The position numbers and the translations under genes are program-made. Below are positions 3,214 through 61,608 of a stretch of DNA of 61,646 nt, piece by piece. The stretch comes from Bdellovibrionales bacterium. GTDB taxonomy: Bacteria > Bdellovibrionota > Bdellovibrionia > Bdellovibrionales > UBA1609. The stretch's first letter is position 1. The number at the start of each line of letters is the position of its first letter. Under the pieces are notes generated by a model that was not told the DNA's origin, searched no databases, and was given only the letters and a program-made list of their open reading frames with translations. The stretch lies in NCBI GenBank assembly GCA_028283955.1, contig JANQSP010000022.1:1-61646 (forward strand), given 5' to 3'.

Positions 3214-4134
3214 TTAGTTTTGTCTTGAAAACAAGTCTGCGGATGTAAAAGAATCGATATAAATATAAAAACTCTGTTTAATGTGTATGTAACCGTCTTC
3301 TTCTATCAGACCTGCCGGAGGATTTGGGAAGGGCGCTGCTGATAAAAAAGCGTGAAGAGCGGCGGAATCAACATTTTCTTCACCGGAGCTTTTTACCACT
3401 CTCATGTCCTGTATTTCTCCGTCTGTGGAAAGATAAACGTAAAGGCTGGTGGAGAATATTTGTTGTCTGTTTCCATGGTTTGATTTGAAAGCGGTAAGGG
3501 GCAGTTCTGTTTGAAGATATTGGTTCCACCTCCAATAGATCTGTTCCTTCATACGGGAAAAGTAGGAATAGTAAATAAATTCTCTTGTATTTAATAGAGT
3601 ATGGGAACCTCTTTCCACACCTGGTAGGAAATCCATAGTCCGACTAAGATCCTGCTTTTTTGGTTGTTGAGAAAAATCCATGTGTTCTAATTCCGTGATG
3701 TTTATTTTAAGGGGTTCTTCTATCACTTCTAATAAAGTGGAGCTTAAGGAGCTGATTTGCCTGTGGATGGGGGAAATGTTTTTCTTAGGCTTTTGGTTTT
3801 TGTTTAGGGCTTCTCTGGCTGAAGTCGGTGAATTTTCTGTTTTTGCCTGGTAAAAAAGCCCTTCTAACATGGCCTGTGTTTCTTTTTCCACGGCTTTATT
3901 TGCCTGGCTGAGGTAACGTGTTTGTTTTTTGGGAATAGTATTATTAAAAGTCTCCTGGCTGACAATTTGCTGGTGAACAGGGTATTCCACGAATACAAGA
4001 CTTTCTTCTTGCTGTTTTATTGTTTTTGTGGACTGTGGGGCCCAGTACAGTAACAGCAAAGGGGTATGTATCAATAGTGAACATAGAATGGCGAACAAGA
4101 AGGGCCTGAGTTTTGTCTGTTTATGATGAAGCAA
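3214..4134 (-). CDS. Membrane-anchored TonB/TolA C-terminal domain protein (energy transducer family)
   Basis: N-terminal TM with SLLIH motif; C-terminal DGEIQDMRVVKSSGEENVDSAALHAFLSAAPFPNPP typical of TonB_C/TolA_C. Confidence 0.75.
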   Translation of the reverse strand: MLHHKQTKLRPFLFAILCSLLIHTPLLLLYWAPQSTKTIKQQEESLVFVEYPVHQQIVSQETFNNTIPKKQTRYLSQANKAVEKETQAMLEGLFYQAKTENSPTSAREALNKNQKPKKNISPIHRQISSLSSTLLEVIEEPLKINITELEHMDFSQQPKKQDLSRTMDFLPGVERGSHTLLNTREFIYYSYFSRMKEQIYWRWNQYLQTELPLTAFKSNHGNRQQIFSTSLYVYLSTDGEIQDMRVVKSSGEENVDSAALHAFLSAAPFPNPPAGLIEEDGYIHIKQSFYIYIDSFTSADLFSRQN

Positions 4135-4207
4135 GAGGAGACCTCACTTTCTTATGTCGTAAAATATTAAGATCATATCCTAACACAGAAAATAAAAGTT
4201 TCATATA

Positions 4208-4960
4208 TTGAGTGTAAAAATGTATATTTTTGGTATGAAATTAGCGTTTTATTCTGCTACAGATGTGGGTTTGGTCAGACATAATAACCAGGATAGCTTA
4301 TTAGCGGATGGAGATAACAGGGTTTTTATGGTAGCGGACGGAATGGGTGGCCATCAAGGGGGAGAAGTGGCTTCCCGTTTGGCCGTTGAGGTTATTTCCC
4401 GCAAACTGGCTGGATTGGTAAGAAAAGAGGAATCTCTTATAGATGATGTTAGGCAGGCCTGTGTAGAGGCGAATAGAGTGATTTATAATGAAGGACGAAA
4501 AAATATTGAGTTAAGAGGTATGGGTACCACTTTGTGCCTGTTTCTTATAAAGGAGAATGGGCAGGCTTATATAGCTAATATCGGAGACTCCCGGTTGTAT
4601 ATGGAAAAGGACGATAAAATGTGGCTCTTGACAGAAGATCACAATTTTCTCACCAATCAATTAAAAGTGAATTTTTTGTCAGGAGAAAGCACTACATCCT
4701 CTTCGGCTGAAGAGAATGTGCTTACGAAAAGTGTTGGCTTTTTTCCTACTGTGGAGCCGGATATTTTTGAGAAAACCGTGGAAACAGGGGAAAAGTACTT
4801 AATTTGCTCTGATGGTTTAAGTGGTTTTGTGCCGGATGAGGAAATTCAAAATATTTTGAAGACTTGTGCTTTACACGATGTCCCTAAAGAATGTATTAAG
4901 AAAGCCCTTGATGCGGGTGGAGAGGATAATATTTCGGTGGTTGCTATTGAGGTTCAATAA
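4208..4960 (+). CDS. PP2C-family Ser/Thr protein phosphatase (Stp1/PrpC type)
   Basis: TDVGLVRHNNQD, VADGMGGHQGGEVAS, GMGTT, ANIGDSRLY, LTEDH, ICSDGL, GGEDNISV. True start may be 4220 or 4235. Confidence 0.93.
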   Translation: MSVKMYIFGMKLAFYSATDVGLVRHNNQDSLLADGDNRVFMVADGMGGHQGGEVASRLAVEVISRKLAGLVRKEESLIDDVRQACVEANRVIYNEGRKNIELRGMGTTLCLFLIKENGQAYIANIGDSRLYMEKDDKMWLLTEDHNFLTNQLKVNFLSGESTTSSSAEENVLTKSVGFFPTVEPDIFEKTVETGEKYLICSDGLSGFVPDEEIQNILKTCALHDVPKECIKKALDAGGEDNISVVAIEVQ

Positions 4961-4984
4961 AATTATAAATAGCTTGTTTTTGAG

Positions 4985-5971
4985 GTGAGTAAATTGATTG
5001 GAAGAGATTTAACAATATTCATTAGTTCTAAAAAAGGTTCTCTTAAGGAACTTCATATTTCCAAATCCCGGCTTCGTTATGGGTGTGTGGGGTTGATTGT
5101 TTTAGCTTTGTTTTTTTGTACTTTTGCCGCTGATTATTTTTTCTCTTTTTCAAACCGTCTTAATTATCAGAAATATCAGGTTGAGAATAAGGACTTAAAA
5201 TCTCAGTTGTCACATTTGCATCTTAAAATGGAGCGGTTAAATTCCCGTTTACATCAGATTGAAGATTTTTCTCATAAAATTAAATTAATTGCAGGGCTGG
5301 AGGAACACACTCATTCTGCCCTAGCTATGGGCCCTTTATCCGACCCTACCTTTCCTGATGTATCTTCTACATTTGATGCAAAATTAAAGGGAGATCGGAC
5401 GCATTCCCGAAAGCCCTCTTCTGTTCCATCTGTGTCTGATTCCAAGAATTTGCCCAACACTTCCATGGACTCCATTGTGGTATATATGGATCGTTTGGAT
5501 AAGAAATCAAAATTGGTACATCAGGATATCACTTTGATGATGGAGAAACTGTATGAAAAAAGAGATATCATAAGCAGCACTCCCAGTATTTTACCGGCTA
5601 AAGGCTGGATTAGTTCTCGTTTTGGTTATCGTCAGTACCCTTTTACAGGAGAAGTTTCTTTACATGAAGGAATGGATATTGCGGGTTTCCCGGGTACTCC
5701 CGTGTATGCACCGTCTGACGGAGTGGTTATGTTTGCCGGATATAAACAAGGTTATGGGAAGGTGATAGTTTTGGATCATGGTTACGAAATGTCCACTCTC
5801 TATGCACATTTAAAGGATATTATGGTATCGAAAAAACAGAAAGTGGAGAGGAAACAGGTCATTGGCACTATTGGTAATACTGGTCACTCTACCGGTCCTC
5901 ATTTACATTATGAAGTGCGAATTTCCAATGTGCCAGTGGATCCATCTGAATTTATTTTGGATTCTTTATAA
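4985..5971 (+). CDS. M23 family metallopeptidase with N-terminal TM and coiled coil
   Basis: HEGMDI (HxxxD), YAHL, STGPHLHYEV (HxH); SSRFGYR. Confidence 0.92.
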   Translation: MSKLIGRDLTIFISSKKGSLKELHISKSRLRYGCVGLIVLALFFCTFAADYFFSFSNRLNYQKYQVENKDLKSQLSHLHLKMERLNSRLHQIEDFSHKIKLIAGLEEHTHSALAMGPLSDPTFPDVSSTFDAKLKGDRTHSRKPSSVPSVSDSKNLPNTSMDSIVVYMDRLDKKSKLVHQDITLMMEKLYEKRDIISSTPSILPAKGWISSRFGYRQYPFTGEVSLHEGMDIAGFPGTPVYAPSDGVVMFAGYKQGYGKVIVLDHGYEMSTLYAHLKDIMVSKKQKVERKQVIGTIGNTGHSTGPHLHYEVRISNVPVDPSEFILDSL

Positions 5972-5986
5972 GAAAGGAAGGATTTT

Positions 5987-6652
5987 ATGAACTTTGTTGA
6001 AAACTTAAAAAAAGAACTGTTGCCTTATCATTTGCTTAAACATCCTTTTTATCAAATGTGGATGGAAGGAACTTTACCTGAGAAGTGTTTACAAAACTAT
6101 GCAACTCAATATTATCATCATGTATCCGCTTTTCCACGGTATATCAGTGCTTTACATTCTTTATGTGAGAGTCAGGAGGATCGAAAAGTATTACTGGAAA
6201 ATTTGAATGAGGAAGAAGGCTCACGTGGTAATTCACATCCGGATCTATGGATGTATTTTGCTGAAGGATTGGGTTTGGATCAAAAAGAGGTCAAAAACTC
6301 CGCTCCCTGTAAAAGTATTCAGGAATTAATAAATACTTTCTTTTCTCACTGTCGGCATTCTTATTCGAAAGGATTATCTGCATTGTACAGTTATGAGTAT
6401 CAAGTGCCCGAAGTGGCTGAAACAAAAATACAGGGTTTAAAAGAACATTATAATGTCACAGACAAAAAGACACTTTTGTTTTTTTTGGTGCATAAGGATG
6501 CTGATATTGAACACAGGGAAGCTATAGAAAAGTTATTGGAAAAATTACCGGAATCACAGCAGAGAGAAGCTATCGATTCAGCCGTGAGTATTGCAAAAAA
6601 TCTGTGGAATTTTTTGACAGAAATGCAACCCGCTCCTTCCGTTGCTGCGTAA
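5987..6652 (+). CDS. CADD-family (CT610-like) self-sacrificing p-aminobenzoate synthase, heme-oxygenase-like dimetal fold
   Basis: HPFY (Y22), YATQYYHHVSAFPRYISALHSLC, LLENLNEEE...H84, YSYE137YQ, K147, H169..D173..H176 all line up with the Chlamydia CT610 pattern; folate gene context. Confidence 0.9.
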   Translation: MNFVENLKKELLPYHLLKHPFYQMWMEGTLPEKCLQNYATQYYHHVSAFPRYISALHSLCESQEDRKVLLENLNEEEGSRGNSHPDLWMYFAEGLGLDQKEVKNSAPCKSIQELINTFFSHCRHSYSKGLSALYSYEYQVPEVAETKIQGLKEHYNVTDKKTLLFFLVHKDADIEHREAIEKLLEKLPESQQREAIDSAVSIAKNLWNFLTEMQPAPSVAA

Positions 6653-6659
6653 AAGATAA

Positions 6660-7025
6660 ATGTATTCCTTTTTAGAGATAAAGTCCCTTATATTGCCTGT
6701 TCATATAGGACGTACCAAAGAAGAGCGTCAGGAACCTCAGGATATTGCCTTTCATATTACTGTAGGTTTTACGAAAGCTTTGAATGATGAGCAGACAGAT
6801 ACATTGGAACAGTCTGTTTGTTACTTTAAAATATGTGAACAAATCAAAGTGCTGACATCCAAGAACCAATTTTCACTGATTGAGAAGTTGGGTTTTGATA
6901 CTTTGACTACGTTAAAAACATTGTTACCCTCCCGTGTTCGTGTGCGGGTGCGCGTGCATAAAATGCATCCTCCCATCTCTCATTTGGAAGGGGGTGTTTC
7001 TTATACCTGCGGTGACTTTCTGTAG
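6660..7025 (+). CDS. folB: Dihydroneopterin aldolase
   Basis: 121 aa; VHIGRTKEERQEPQDI, SVCYFKI, FSLIEKL, VRVHK; lies between CADD and folKP. Confidence 0.8.
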   Translation: MYSFLEIKSLILPVHIGRTKEERQEPQDIAFHITVGFTKALNDEQTDTLEQSVCYFKICEQIKVLTSKNQFSLIEKLGFDTLTTLKTLLPSRVRVRVRVHKMHPPISHLEGGVSYTCGDFL

Positions 7026-7128
7026 GAATCCGCAAAGTAAATTCATGTAGTGACTTTGTATTGTATAAGTATTACTTTCTTGTTTGGAAAATAACAGTGG
7101 AATATAAAAAACAAGTAAGAATATAATT

Positions 7129-8406
7129 ATGGGTGAAAACAAAACAGCCTGTATCGGTTTTGGTTCTAATATAGAAAATCGTTTAAGCTATATTGAGTCC
7201 GCTATAAAGGAGATGGAAAAGCAGGGGTTTTCTATCCTTAAAATTTCTCCGATTTATGAGACACCGGCTCTTCTTCCACCGAATGCTTTAGAAGGATGGG
7301 ATCGTCCTTTTTTAAATGGGGTAGCGCAAGTGCAATGTGGAACATCTCCACAACAGTTGCTCAATTCTTTGAAGATGATTGAAAAAAACCTGGGTCGAAA
7401 AACAAATCTCAAATGGGCACCCAGAACTATTGACTTGGATATTCTGCTTTTTAATGGACAGGTTATTAATACTGAAGAATTACAGATTCCTCATCCTGAA
7501 ATGATAAATAGAAATTTTGTTTTAACCCCTTTAAAAGAAATGGAGCCCTTCCTGGAAATACCGGGCAAGGGGAAAAATAATACAGTGTTGGAGCTTTTTC
7601 GTCGCTTGCCTTTGAAATTGCCTACATGGATGCATATTTTAAATGTGACTCCTGATTCTTTTTCTGATGGGGGTCAGTTGGATTTGAGTAATTATACTTC
7701 CATCTTACAAAGAATATCAGGTCAAAATATTCATATTGTTGATTTGGGAGCCGAGTCCACCCGGCCTGGAGCGATTCCTGTTTCTCCGGAAGAGGAATGG
7801 CAGAGACTCATGCCCTATATTCATTTATTTTTTGATTTTTATGAAAATAAAATATTCCGTCCCAAGCTGAGTTTGGACACGCGGTATCCACAGACAGCAA
7901 GAAAAGGTATTGATATGGGTGTTGATATCATTAATGATGTTGGTGGGTTGTCTGATGGAATGCTTGAGGTGCTTAAAGACACAAAAGTGGAATATATACT
8001 TATGCATAGTATGACTGTACCCGCTTCCCATGATAACACCTTGCCGATAGATAAAGATCCCGTGGATGAAATAAAAAAATGGCTGCATGAGAAAATAAGT
8101 ATTTTAAAAGAGCACAATATTTCCCTTGATCGTATTATTTTTGACCCGGGGATTGGATTTGGTAAAACAGCTGATCAGTCTTTAAATATCTTAAAGAGAA
8201 TTCGGGAGTTTTATTGTTTTCCCTTGCGGATTTTAGTGGGGCATTCCAGAAAGTCTTTTATGAAATTGTTTTATTCTGACAATCCTGTAGATAGGGATTG
8301 TGAAAGTGCCGGGTTATCCCTTTCTCTTGTAAAACAGGGAGTGGATATTCTACGTGTGCATGAGGCTGATTTTCATGCTCGTGTTTTACGGGGTTTTATA
8401 GCTTAG
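7129..8406 (+). CDS. folKP: Bifunctional HPPK / dihydropteroate synthase (FolK-FolP fusion)
   Basis: FolK motifs GFGSNI, SPIYET, FLNGV, WAPRTIDLDIL, IPHP; FolP motifs ILNVTPDSFSDGG, GAESTRPG, SLDT, INDV, FDPGIGFGK, GHSRKSF, RVHE. Confidence 0.95.
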   Translation: MGENKTACIGFGSNIENRLSYIESAIKEMEKQGFSILKISPIYETPALLPPNALEGWDRPFLNGVAQVQCGTSPQQLLNSLKMIEKNLGRKTNLKWAPRTIDLDILLFNGQVINTEELQIPHPEMINRNFVLTPLKEMEPFLEIPGKGKNNTVLELFRRLPLKLPTWMHILNVTPDSFSDGGQLDLSNYTSILQRISGQNIHIVDLGAESTRPGAIPVSPEEEWQRLMPYIHLFFDFYENKIFRPKLSLDTRYPQTARKGIDMGVDIINDVGGLSDGMLEVLKDTKVEYILMHSMTVPASHDNTLPIDKDPVDEIKKWLHEKISILKEHNISLDRIIFDPGIGFGKTADQSLNILKRIREFYCFPLRILVGHSRKSFMKLFYSDNPVDRDCESAGLSLSLVKQGVDILRVHEADFHARVLRGFIA

Positions 8407-8444
8407 TTGTTTTTTGGAACAGATATTAAAAAAGGCGTTTTTTT

Positions 8445-9164
8445 ATGCGAATGGAACCTATTTACACAGATATATTTTCTGAAGGTGAAAGTTTAATTAA
8501 TTTCATAATTAAACATGCTGAAGGTAAGTTAAAAGAAAAGTCAGTGCTGGCCATCACGTCTAAAATTGTCAGTCTGGCGGAAAACTGTACTCTTAATAAA
8601 GAGGGAATAGATAAAAAAAAGTTAATTCAAAAGGAATCTGAACGTTATCTTGGAGAAATAGGTTATGGTTGCCACCTGACTATTAAGCATGGTCTGTTAG
8701 TGCCTTCAGCAGGTATTGATGAATCCAACTCTGTTGATAATAAATATATTTTATATCCAAAAAACCCTTTTGCTTCCGCTGAAAAAATATGTAGAGAGGT
8801 TAAGAAAAAATTTTCTTTGAATGATTTCGGGGTGATCATTACGGATTCACGTACCTTTCCTCTGCGAAAAGGGGTAATAGGGGTGGCGTTGGCTTACAGT
8901 GGTTTTAAGGCCCTTAAGAGTTTAATAGGAAAAGAGGATCTTTTCGGTCGTCCGCTTCGAATAACAACAATTAATTTGGTGGATGCTTTAGCTGCTTCTG
9001 CTGTTTTGTTAATGGGAGAAGGAGCGGAACGGTGTCCTTTGGTGGGACTTTATGAAACTCCTGTGGTATTTACAAATAAAACGGATAAGACTGAGTTGGC
9101 CATTTCTGTGGAGGAGGATTTGTATAAGCCTTTATATCCCCCCCGGGTTTTTACAGATCGTTAA
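8445..9164 (+). CDS. CofE-like gamma-glutamate ligase, CT611-type folate ligase (alternative to FolC)
   Basis: TSKIVSLAE, LVPSAGIDESN, ILYPKNP, GVIITDS, PLRKGVIG, DLFGRPL, NLVDALAASAVLLMGEGAE match the CofE/CT611 family; folate context. Confidence 0.88.
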   Translation: MRMEPIYTDIFSEGESLINFIIKHAEGKLKEKSVLAITSKIVSLAENCTLNKEGIDKKKLIQKESERYLGEIGYGCHLTIKHGLLVPSAGIDESNSVDNKYILYPKNPFASAEKICREVKKKFSLNDFGVIITDSRTFPLRKGVIGVALAYSGFKALKSLIGKEDLFGRPLRITTINLVDALAASAVLLMGEGAERCPLVGLYETPVVFTNKTDKTELAISVEEDLYKPLYPPRVFTDR

Positions 9165-9884
9165 ATACTGTTGAACCACTGTTTTTAGTCCCTGATAAAG
9201 GGATTCACAGATCAGGGCATGGCCGATGGAAACCTCTTTGATTTGAGGAATCTTTTTCAGGAGCCAGGAAAGGTTATCCAGGTTCAAATCATGTCCGGCA
9301 TTAATTTCGATTTTTTCCTTAATTAATTTTTCTGCCGCATGGATATAGGTTTGGGTTACTTTTTCCCTTTGAGCAGTGTGATAGGCGGTGGCATAAGCTT
9401 CTGTGTAAAGTTCCACTCGTTCCGGTATTAGCTGAGTAAGAGAATCAAGTTCTGTTTCAGTGAGAGTGAAGGGATCTATAAACAAAGAGGTGCGAATATT
9501 ATACTTTTTTAAGGAAGTTAATACGTTGTCTAAAAAATCAAGGTTTTTGTGTACGGACCAACCGGCGTTGGATGTTAAGGCGGTGGGGGGGTCGGGTACC
9601 AAAGTACATTGATCTGGCCGTACTTTTTCCATAAGTTGTAAAAAATGAGGGCTCGGATAACCTTCCACATTTAGTTCTATTTCTTTGTGTGTTGTCAGGA
9701 GTTTTTTAATGTTCTGTACATCTGTATAAAGAATATGGCGTCCATCCGGACGGGGGTGGACGGTGATCCCTTTTACACCGAAATAGATCAATTTTTTTAC
9801 AGCCTCTATTAAATCCGGCTGATTTTTCCCTCTTGAATTGCGGAGAGTGGCAATTTTATTGACATTAACGCTGAGTCTGGTCAT
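9132..9884 (-). CDS. pdxJ: Pyridoxine 5'-phosphate synthase
   Basis: LSVNVNKIATLRNSRG, ITVHPRPDGRH, NVEG, TLVPD, SLFID, AGHDL, EVSIGHALI. Confidence 0.95.
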   Translation of the reverse strand: MTRLSVNVNKIATLRNSRGKNQPDLIEAVKKLIYFGVKGITVHPRPDGRHILYTDVQNIKKLLTTHKEIELNVEGYPSPHFLQLMEKVRPDQCTLVPDPPTALTSNAGWSVHKNLDFLDNVLTSLKKYNIRTSLFIDPFTLTETELDSLTQLIPERVELYTEAYATAYHTAQREKVTQTYIHAAEKLIKEKIEINAGHDLNLDNLSWLLKKIPQIKEVSIGHALICESLYQGLKTVVQQYLTICKNPGGI

Positions 9885-9908
9885 AAACTCCTCTTTCGGA
9901 TGGGAATT

Positions 9909-9930
9909 TTAACATAAATTTAATAAAGCT
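9909..9930 (+). promoter_or_regulatory. Candidate Pho box (direct repeat with 11-bp period)
   Basis: TTAACA at 9909-9914 and TTAATA at 9920-9925, exactly 11 bp apart, immediately upstream of pstS; resembles TT(A/T/C)ACA-type PhoP/PhoB half-sites. Confidence 0.4.
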
Positions 9931-9943
9931 TCACTCTGATCTG

Positions 9944-11038
9944 GTGTACTTTCAGGAGAGTGGTAAGAGGGTTTTAATTTTGCGTTCTTTCTGTTTTATT
10001 CTCATTTTAGCTTGTTTATTCCCGGTGATATCACAGGGCCAGCCCAGGCCGGTAAAATCAAAAAAACCTTTATTAATCAATGGAGCGGGCGCCTCTTTTC
10101 CTTACATTCTTTATTCTAAATGGTTTCTGGAGTATCGAAAGGTGGATCCGGATATCATGATTAATTATCGTTCTATCGGGAGTGGGGGCGGTATTCGTCA
10201 ATTTTTAACTGGCACTTTGGATTTTGGTGCTACTGATGTTCCTATGCAAAAAGAACAGATTCAAAAATCCAAAAAGGAGATATTGCATCTTCCAACCGCC
10301 CTGGGAGCGGTTGTAGTGAGTTATAACTTAAATTTGCCAAAAGAAGTGACTATTCGTTTAACAGGAGAAGTGCTTGCAGATATTTATATGGGGGAAATAA
10401 AAAAATGGAATCATCAAAGAATCATTGAGATTAATCCTGGTGTTTCTCTCCCCGCTCAAAATATTGTTCCTATTTATCGGGCTGATGGGAGTGGAACCAC
10501 AGCTGTTTTTACTGAATATCTGGGGCAATTTTCAGAAAATTGGATTAAAAAAGTGGGTAAGGGAAAATCGGTTAACTGGGCTACAGGTATCGGTGGTAAA
10601 GGAAATGAAGGGGTAATGGGTCTGGTTCAGAAAATACCGGGAAGTATAGGTTACCTGGCGATGAGCTATGCGATTAATCGTAAGCTGCCGATGGCGCACA
10701 TGCAGAACATGTCCGGACATTTTGTAAAAGCCAGTATTCACACTGTTAAAACTTCGGCAAAACAAATATTAAAAACAACAAATGATCTTTTTCATCCTCT
10801 CGTTGTTGCTAAAGGAGCGGATGTGTATCCTATGTCTTCTTATACTTACTTACTGGTGTACAAGGAGATGCTTTCAACAAAAGGACAGGCATTAGTGCAA
10901 TTTCTCAATTGGTCATTGGGAGCAGGGCAAAGTTTTTGCGAACAATTACACTACATATCCCTGCCTTCTGCAGTTGTGAAGAAAGTAAAAAACAAAGTTC
11001 GATCAATTAAAGTTGTTGATGATGACAAAAAAACCTAA
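9944..11038 (+). CDS. pstS: Phosphate ABC transporter substrate-binding protein
   Basis: GAGASFP, YRSIGSGGG, DFGATD, RADGSGTT, GKGNEGV. Probable start is TTG at 9980 after an AAGAGG RBS. Confidence 0.96.
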   Translation: MYFQESGKRVLILRSFCFILILACLFPVISQGQPRPVKSKKPLLINGAGASFPYILYSKWFLEYRKVDPDIMINYRSIGSGGGIRQFLTGTLDFGATDVPMQKEQIQKSKKEILHLPTALGAVVVSYNLNLPKEVTIRLTGEVLADIYMGEIKKWNHQRIIEINPGVSLPAQNIVPIYRADGSGTTAVFTEYLGQFSENWIKKVGKGKSVNWATGIGGKGNEGVMGLVQKIPGSIGYLAMSYAINRKLPMAHMQNMSGHFVKASIHTVKTSAKQILKTTNDLFHPLVVAKGADVYPMSSYTYLLVYKEMLSTKGQALVQFLNWSLGAGQSFCEQLHYISLPSAVVKKVKNKVRSIKVVDDDKKT

Positions 11039-61521: not shown

Positions 61522-61608
61522 TGCCCGAGGTCAGACTTGAACTGACACGGTTTGTTACAAACCCCAGGATTTTAAGTCCTGTGCGTCTACCGGTTCCGCC
61601 ACTCGGGC
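61522..61608 (-). tRNA. tRNA-Leu (anticodon UAA)
   Basis: GCCCGAG/CTCGGGC acceptor stem, D-arm GTGGCGGAACCGGTAGACGC, CAGGA-CTTAAAA-TCCTG anticodon arm, long variable arm, GTCAG-TTCAAGT-CTGAC T-arm, discriminator A; CCA not encoded. Confidence 0.97.

Follow-up and report, generated by a model that had tools for sequence, protein, structure and literature searches.

Why does a bacterium of the order Bdellovibrionales carry a set of folate genes of the kind described from Chlamydia and Wolbachia? The genes occur on contig JANQSP010000022.1 of a Bdellovibrionales bacterium (GenBank assembly GCA_028283955.1). This 61,646-nucleotide stretch, which was analyzed whole and is referred to here as the window, corresponds to contig C47 in a genome of 1.35 Mb that is in 85 contigs and is 91% complete. 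Four open reading frames (ORFs) at positions 5987-9164 encode a CADD-type synthase of para-aminobenzoate (pABA), a FolB-family protein, a fused FolK-FolP, and a γ-glutamate ligase of the CofE fold. A first-pass annotation of the sequence, which had placed the four ORFs at these same positions, offered two explanations for them, either lateral transfer between organisms that share a host cell or niche or a wider distribution of the pathway than recognized, and considered the cluster a candidate for an undescribed system. We find that a known folate system is present here in a host lineage that is new for it, and that the cluster is neither a new system nor a recent transfer. Very probably, this is the native, vertically inherited folate operon of a small-genome Bdellovibrionales bacterium, in which two known non-orthologous replacements are used.

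Proteins encoded by the cluster

The four genes are located on the same strand and are separated by intergenic gaps of 7, 103, and 38 bp:

5987-6652, + strand: predicted CADD-type self-sacrificing pABA synthase, a heme-oxygenase-like dimetal oxygenase (HDO) (221 aa; TIGR04305)
6660-7025, + strand: FolB-family protein, probably dihydroneopterin aldolase (121 aa; PF02152, TIGR00526)
7129-8406, + strand: fused FolK-FolP, with hydroxymethyldihydropterin pyrophosphokinase (HPPK) at residues 9-140 and dihydropteroate synthase (DHPS) at residues 168-421 (425 aa; TIGR01498, TIGR01496)
8445-9164, + strand: CofE-fold γ-glutamate ligase, predicted FolC2-type dihydrofolate/folylpolyglutamate synthase (239 aa; PF01996, TIGR04132)

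The gene identities proposed in the first-pass annotation (CADD, folB, folKP, and CofE-like ligase) were correct by family-profile scores, and the activities discussed below for all four proteins are predicted from these family relationships.

The CADD protein scored 276 bits on TIGR04305 (1.9e-82; 275.5 bits in a whole-genome scan), above the cut-off of 200. It matched the structure of Chlamydia trachomatis CT610 (PDB 1rcw) at 1.8e-44, as well as two structures designated '4-aminobenzoate synthase', 8va9 at 4.6e-44 and 9pj4 at 5e-35, the latter of which we take to be Nitrosomonas europaea NE1434 (NePabS). Sequence identity to C. trachomatis CADD is ~36%, as counted in the 1rcw alignment. In the C. 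trachomatis protein, Tyr27 is sacrificed, Lys152 is its neighbor, and Tyr43 is part of the relay, and the peptide HTFYVKW loses 108 Da (PMC9522330). The window CADD has Y22, Y38, and K147 aligned with Y27, Y43, and K152 of 1rcw, respectively, and the motif around Y22 is HPFYQMW, as compared with HTFYVKW in C. trachomatis. Likewise, E76, H84, E137, H169, D173, and H176 align with C. trachomatis E81, H88, E142, H174, D178, and H181, which we take to be the dimetal-site ligands of 1RCW (three His and three carboxylates). Y22, Y38, K147, and these six metal ligands are invariant in an alignment of 19 CADD homologues ranging from 47 to 80% in identity. As judged from these alignments, the window CADD keeps every residue known to matter in CADD. 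Its gene is located directly upstream of folB-folKP in a genome that has no PabB, and we predict that it encodes a pABA synthase; CT610 complements Escherichia coli pabA/B/C mutants (PMC4161248). Among CADD homologues, P0031 (359 aa) bears a precomputed Pfam 'Death domain' label, which was weak upon re-scanning (28 bits, with no stretch passing alone) and is probably spurious.

FolB was recognized by PF02152 (7e-17; 62.4 bits, cut-off 31.8) and by the FolB-domain model TIGR00526 (66.3 bits, cut-off 45.05). When the protein is aligned to FolX structures, residues E21/E22, Y55, E75, and K101 prove to be conserved; these residues are common to FolB and FolX. FolKP passed the cut-offs of both of its equivalog models, with 123.4 bits on TIGR01498 (folK; cut-off 54.1, residues 8-140) and 230.6 bits on TIGR01496 (DHPS; cut-off 162.6, residues 168-421). 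Both Pfam domains were matched end to end in this single polypeptide, which is the sole DHPS of the genome.

Folate pathway of the host genome and role of the ligase

The genome has neither of the enzymes that CADD and the ligase would replace. No FolC was found genome-wide, the best match to TIGR01499 being MurE, and no PabB was found genome-wide either, the sole chorismate-binding enzyme being a MenF-type isochorismate synthase whose gene has menD on one side and a DAHP synthase gene on the other. These absences were re-examined in closed or near-closed congeners. FolC occurs in 0 of 14 genomes of the genus, and none of these encodes more than a single chorismate-binding enzyme, MenF-type where present. 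The genome-wide lack of pabB and folC that the first-pass annotation had wished to see confirmed thus holds both here and in closed genomes of the same genus. A type-I GTP cyclohydrolase (FolE-I) is likewise missing genome-wide, and FolE2 is encoded at C25:1404-2336 (211 bits on PF02649), as it is in 14 of 14 genus genomes. The dihydrofolate reductase (DHFR) gene, folA, is at C19:4116-4823, unlinked to the cassette. The Pfam model for DHFR was matched in two pieces, with an insert of ~25-35 residues between them, and use of the first start codon would give the protein a low-complexity N-terminal extension of 40 residues. By gene content, the predicted tetrahydrofolate route is complete and hybrid, composed of entry through FolE2, an unlinked folA, and two 'Chlamydia-type' replacements.

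In the proposed route, FolE2 (contig C25) would provide dihydroneopterin triphosphate, dihydroneopterin would be cleaved by FolB, and the pterin would be pyrophosphorylated by the FolK half of FolKP. CADD would supply pABA without drawing on chorismate, through oxidative cleavage of the side chain of its own Tyr22 at an Fe/Mn site, with a single turnover per protein. Such single-turnover self-cleavage has been demonstrated for C. trachomatis CADD (PMC9522330). Pterin and pABA would be joined by the FolP half of FolKP, glutamate(s) would be added by the CofE-fold ligase instead of FolC, and dihydrofolate would be reduced by DHFR (contig C19).

The least familiar member of this route is the ligase, which has the PF01996 F420_ligase fold (4e-40) and matches Archaeoglobus fulgidus CofE at 1.5e-23. 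Its best NCBIfam model is TIGR04132, 'putative folate metabolism gamma-glutamate ligase' (230.8 bits), and its score on the CofE model TIGR01916 (132.8 bits) is below the cut-off of 180.65. TIGR04132 outscored the CofE model in 10 of 10 representatives spread across a ligase tree, three of which carry organism names by cluster look-up. The tree was built from the ~150 best cluster representatives among 1.8 billion proteins, and has weak backbone support.

The distribution of the ligase among 40 related genomes is complementary to that of FolC. The CofE-like ligase occurs in 19 of these and bona fide FolC in 10, and no genome has both. Restricting the comparison to the 23 genomes that have DHPS, 17 have the ligase, six have FolC, and again none has both. 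CofD, the universal enzyme of the F420 pathway, was found in none of the 40 genomes, and control genomes scored as expected. A genuine F420 CofE identity for the ligase is ruled out by the absence of CofD from 40 of 40 genomes along with the score below the CofE cut-off. Another member of the ligase family, CT611, rescues an E. coli folC mutant (PMC1971073). These sequence relationships indicate that the window ligase is FolC2-like in function and replaces FolC, and we predict that it has both dihydrofolate synthase (DHFS) and folylpolyglutamate synthase (FPGS) activity. The homologue in cultured Bdellovibrio bacteriovorus (P0173) and many of those in Bdellovibrio metagenome-assembled genomes (MAGs) bear the NCBI name 'coenzyme F420-0:L-glutamate ligase'. 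This name is doubtful because the ligase and FolC never occur together and CofD is missing from the 40 relatives, and these proteins are probably misannotated folate ligases. One member of the family, P0247 (463 aa), consists of a Vut_1 'putative vitamin uptake transporter' (residues 45-203) fused to a CofE-like ligase (residues 224-422). The fusion suggests uptake followed by glutamylation that traps the vitamin, in keeping with a role of the ligase family in folate salvage.

Several observations weigh against reading the locus as a dedicated folate operon. On the TIGR00525 folB equivalog model, FolB scored 53.6 bits, below the cut-off of 72.15, and its sole PDB matches by sequence are weak ones to FolX epimerases. 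Chlamydia CT614 presents the same FolB/FolX ambiguity, yet complements E. coli folB (PMC4161248); by operon context and this precedent, the window protein is probably a dihydroneopterin aldolase. The ligase, at 230.8 bits, falls short of the hypothetical-equivalog cut-off of 350 for TIGR04132, as do the copies in relatives (0 of 19 reach it), and because of this we keep it outside of the TIGR04132 equivalog proper. With the assembly being 91% complete, gene absences lean on the closed congeneric genomes. What points to co-transcription of the four genes is their spacing. Lastly, five congeners that have FolKP but neither CADD nor PabB show that members of the genus could obtain pABA by a means other than CADD.

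Some of these same observations could be accommodated if one or both of the unusual enzymes acted outside of folate synthesis, with the ligase glutamylating some other substrate, or CADD being a different HDO oxygenase and pABA or folate being taken from prey. The ligase score below the TIGR04132 cut-off, the F420 name given to Bdellovibrio homologues, the five congeners without CADD, and the retention of the ligase without DHPS in two genomes (G018 and G020) would all be consistent with such a role. However, CofD occurs in none of the 40 genomes, the ligase and FolC are never in one genome, the ligase gene adjoins folKP, CADD shows no variation at any pABA-synthase residue, and CADD is confined to genomes that have DHPS (15 of 15 among the 40 relatives). 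The ligase without DHPS also fits folate salvage, in which scavenged folate would be glutamylated. We therefore consider a function outside of folate synthesis improbable, and favor a folate operon.

Distribution and descent

The first-pass annotation had surmised a non-chlamydial, Bdellovibrionota-like host, and this was borne out by the nearest named homologues of CADD and the ligase, which are from 'Bdellovibrionales bacterium', 'Oligoflexia', and 'Bdellovibrio sp.' records. The best named CADD locus (L039) is on a closed 2.31-Mb chromosome of a Bdellovibrionales MAG, with 76% CADD identity. The cassette is preceded in the window by genes for a PP2C phosphatase and an M23 peptidase and is followed by pdxJ and then by pstS-pstC. 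Two further features of the window are as follows:

9132-9884, - strand: pdxJ, convergent with the ligase gene
61522-61608, - strand: tRNA gene (Rfam match)

The ligase gene (+) and pdxJ (-) run toward each other and share their last 33 bp (9132-9164). An Rfam scan of the whole window, in which the tRNA gene was the sole match, found no RNA element or riboswitch in the cassette. A promoter and terminator scan of positions 4000-10000 gave counts no better than those from shuffled sequence, and hence is uninformative on operon boundaries.

The order PP2C-M23-CADD-folB-folKP-ligase-pdxJ-pstS is collinear in a genome of the same genus (L015), with 63-80% protein identity. PP2C through the ligase is collinear in congeners, extending in one of these (G010) through pdxJ and pstS, and the site of the cassette between M23 and pdxJ is constant throughout the genus. 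These collinear flanks along with a G+C content that is even across the window rule out contamination or a chimeric contig, a concern that had been raised from the sequence at first. The same four-gene order is found in 12 or more other genomes of Bdellovibrionota at 43-80% protein identity. Among them are G010, G013, G011, G012, G016 (another genus of the same family), and G031 (another family), as well as seven named Bdellovibrionota MAGs at 43-57% identity (L039, L044, L045, L051, L056, L057, and L107).

CADD above the cut-off was found in 15 of the 40 relatives, including nine of the 14 genus genomes, and the window CADD shares 64-80% identity with the copies in congeners and other members of the family. 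In a CADD tree, the window protein groups with those of G010 and G013 (96/82), within a genus clade (98/79) whose sister is G015 of the same family (99/99), followed by other Bdellovibrionales. The FolKP tree has the same shape, with the window next to G010 and G013, then the genus clade, and then other Bdellovibrionales. The scan across species kept its best 80 CADD loci, all of which have at least 48% identity; chlamydial copies are lower and are not part of the CADD tree, and the relation of C. trachomatis CADD to the window protein is taken from the 1rcw alignment.

The distribution of CADD is broad. In a sample of 401 Bdellovibrionota genomes drawn evenly from the phylum, 61 (15%), in 43 of 204 genera, encode CADD. 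Beyond the phylum, a scan of one genome per GTDB species gave at least 507 confirmed CADD loci in more than 500 species. The best 80 loci include scores from Pelagibacterales (SAR11), along with Myxococcota, Bradymonadales, Rickettsiales, and Legionellales, at 48-56% identity. In SAR11 (loci within L049-L117), CADD, which is 48-56% identical to the window protein, stands alone, away from folB, folKP, and the CofE-like ligase. Bdellovibrionota CADD proteins already carry the NCBI name 'CADD family putative folate metabolism protein'. Of the two explanations put forward at first, it is the wider distribution that these data sustain. Given CADD in 15% of sampled Bdellovibrionota and more than 500 species, and proteins that NCBI has already named, the suggestion of an undescribed system does not hold. 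The cassette proves to be already widespread and vertically inherited, which the first-pass annotation had itself regarded as incompatible with its main proposal. Two MAG loci whose CADDs cluster tightly with Bdellovibrionales copies are labeled otherwise, L070 (OY969558.1) as 'uncultured archaeon' and L054 (CAYOGS010000129.1) as 'Rhodospirillales', and these taxonomic labels may be wrong.

These data bear directly on a recent lateral acquisition from co-inhabitants of a host cell, be they Chlamydiae, Wolbachia, or Rickettsiales. Such an origin is prompted by the fact that the same enzyme set marks those intracellular bacteria (PMC4161248), by the small size of the genome (1.35 Mb), and by the ligase tree, in which a Chlamydiota-containing clade (P0257) neighbors the Bdellovibrionota clade. 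The Chlamydiota protein in this neighboring clade has the NCBI name 'putative folate metabolism gamma-glutamate ligase' and scores 334.8 bits on TIGR04132. However, the neighboring clade does not enclose that of Bdellovibrionota, and because of the weak backbone of the tree, the direction of any ancient ligase transfer between Chlamydiota and Bdellovibrionota is unreadable from it. The window CADD is only ~36% identical to that of C. trachomatis, as against 64-80% to those of congeners and family and 49-56% to those of SAR11 and Myxococcota, so that it is nearer to the latter two than to the chlamydial protein. The CADD and FolKP trees follow kinship at the level of genus, family, and order, the cassette occupies one site, between M23 and pdxJ, across the genus, and G+C is uniform. 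The gene order is unlike that of Chlamydia, with folA outside of the cluster, and FolE2 is present. Recent transfer from Chlamydiae or Rickettsiales is ruled out by these identities, the congruent trees, and the conserved synteny, and the lateral transfer envisaged at first is left with hardly any probability.

Transfer in the distant past is another matter. The module could have been subject to ancient interphylum transfers followed by long vertical descent, with CADD and the ligase exchanged more than once with Alphaproteobacteria, Myxococcota, or Chlamydiota. This concerns the origin of the module only, and is compatible with the present locus being a native, vertically inherited operon. 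The CADDs of Bdellovibrionota are divided among several clades (three or four at the least), one of which (G027/G029/G039) groups with Myxococcota and Bradymonadales, and an alphaproteobacterial clade (starred in the analysis) sits among them. The partner of CADD differs as well, being FolC in some families, as in G027/G029/G039, and the CofE-like ligase in others, and CADD is scattered patchily across the phylum, in 15% of the genomes. Set against this, backbone support is weak in both the CADD and ligase trees, the taxonomic labels of MAGs are unreliable, as with the 'archaeon' and 'Rhodospirillales' loci above, and patchiness is equally explicable by repeated loss, which is seen directly within the genus. 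We consider ancient exchange a genuine possibility, somewhat short of an even chance.

Loss within the genus is evident from five of the 14 congeners (G002, G004, G006, G007, and G009), which keep FolKP and the ligase but have neither CADD nor a second chorismate-binding enzyme. In G004, G002, G006, and G007, the M23 gene directly abuts folB (L030:3608-4956, L119:4449-5850, L120:4755-6122, and L121:7887-9277, respectively), and the FolKP tree requires at least two changes of CADD presence in the genus. The CADD-less congeners are probably pABA scavengers or users of an unknown pABA source. Two larger genomes of the same family, G018 and G020, which are of the periplasmic Bdellovibrio type, have the ligase only and no DHPS.

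The arrangement of the genes varies as well. The ligase gene is located away from the cassette in G003, G005, and G015. In G008 and G001, a gene for a TonB-dependent receptor (635-642 aa, Plug and β-barrel) lies between folB and folKP (L039:8411-10318, +, and L020:9057-10985, +), at the position of the 103-bp gap in the window. Further inserts are a C5 cytosine DNA methylase gene between folKP and the ligase gene in G008 (L039:12116-12988, -) and a gene for an NYN-domain protein after CADD in G001 (L020:7577-8278, +). In G016 (L024:7616-9571; G016:C1:480089-481582), the DHPS part of FolKP is split over two frames at ~8668, and one open frame of 710 aa spans the N-terminal part of DHPS and the CofE-like ligase; a frameshift, a fusion, or an error of assembly could each account for this.

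It has been remarked that only epibiotic Pseudobdellovibrionaceae retain folB, folP, and folC (PMC11870529). The pattern of loss seen here fits this remark, and would also fit predators that, being able to obtain pABA or folate from prey, have given up de novo synthesis step by step. More speculatively, the CADD/FolKP/CofE-like module may have been ancestral in Bdellovibrionales, with its stepwise erosion tracking lifestyle, a proposal that we make tentatively and regard as rather unlikely. The window genome would represent the first state, with full de novo synthesis. In the second, seen in the five of 14 congeners, CADD would have been lost and FolB-FolKP kept, with pABA derived from prey or from a third pABA route. 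In the third, represented by G018 and G020, the ligase would remain by itself and trap folate scavenged from prey. If true, the state of the folate pathway would be a genomic marker of the feeding mode of a predator, and the annotated 'F420 ligase' of cultured B. bacteriovorus would be its only folate-glutamylating enzyme.

Irrespective of origin, a suicide pABA synthase and a CofE-fold substitute for FolC are not markers of obligate intracellular life. A large Bdellovibrio-like group possesses both as a matter of course, by vertical inheritance, and CADD alone occurs in SAR11 and many free-living lineages. The presence of CADD, FolKP, and the ligase varies among close relatives, which could help predict the needs of uncultured predators for pABA or folate from prey. 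We found no paper describing this pathway in Bdellovibrionota or SAR11, the closest being the remark on Pseudobdellovibrionaceae (PMC11870529), and the literature therefore understates the host range. Nothing points to a new enzyme or mechanism.

Comparison with known systems

The enzymes of Chlamydia and Wolbachia and their joint use were described in 2007 and 2014 (PMC1971073, PMC4161248), and the mechanism of CADD in 2022 (PMC9522330). The window cluster resembles that of C. trachomatis in having a CADD-type synthase with its catalytic residues kept, a FolX-like FolB, a fused FolK-FolP, and a CofE-fold ligase in place of FolC. In both, pabABC and folC are absent and the genes are clustered on one strand. 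The C. trachomatis operon has the order folB (ct614)-folKP (ct613)-folA (ct612)-folC2 (ct611)-ct610 (CADD) (PMC4161248). In contrast, the order in the window is CADD-folB-folKP-ligase and folA is unlinked, on contig C19, which confirms the difference in order noticed in the first-pass annotation. Neither FolE nor FolE2 is present in Chlamydia or Wolbachia (PMC1971073), and the pterin branch of Chlamydia proceeds through a RibA/TrpF bypass (PMC4161248). Unlike these, the window genome has FolE2 and a conventional pterin entry. The description of the cluster as a complete Chlamydia/Wolbachia-type pathway was overstated, in view of FolE2, the different order, and folA being outside of the cluster. 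The proteins differ as well, with CADD being only ~36% identical to its C. trachomatis counterpart and the ligase scoring 231 bits on TIGR04132 (cut-off 350). Lastly, C. trachomatis is an obligate intracellular pathogen, whereas the window host is a free-living or predatory-type member of Bdellovibrionales.

The window ligase shares the PF01996 fold with the archaeal and actinobacterial F420:glutamate ligases CofE and FbiB (PDB 2g9i and 7uld; PMC10861534), and probably the same chemistry, a GTP/Mn-dependent γ-glutamyl ligation. Unlike these enzymes, it is below the TIGR01916 cut-off, and CofD is absent from its genome and from 39 relatives. Its substrate would be dihydropteroate or folate.

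A second precedent for CADD comes from N. europaea, in which NE1434 (NePabS) was described in 2025 as a CADD-family pABA synthase in a free-living bacterium (PMC11965152). NePabS differs from the window system in not having been reported with a CofE-like ligase. Within the CADD family, NePabS is described as having a different metal preference (Fe/Fe versus Mn/Fe) (PMC11965152). As N. europaea is free-living, CADD-type enzymes are not tied to intracellular life.

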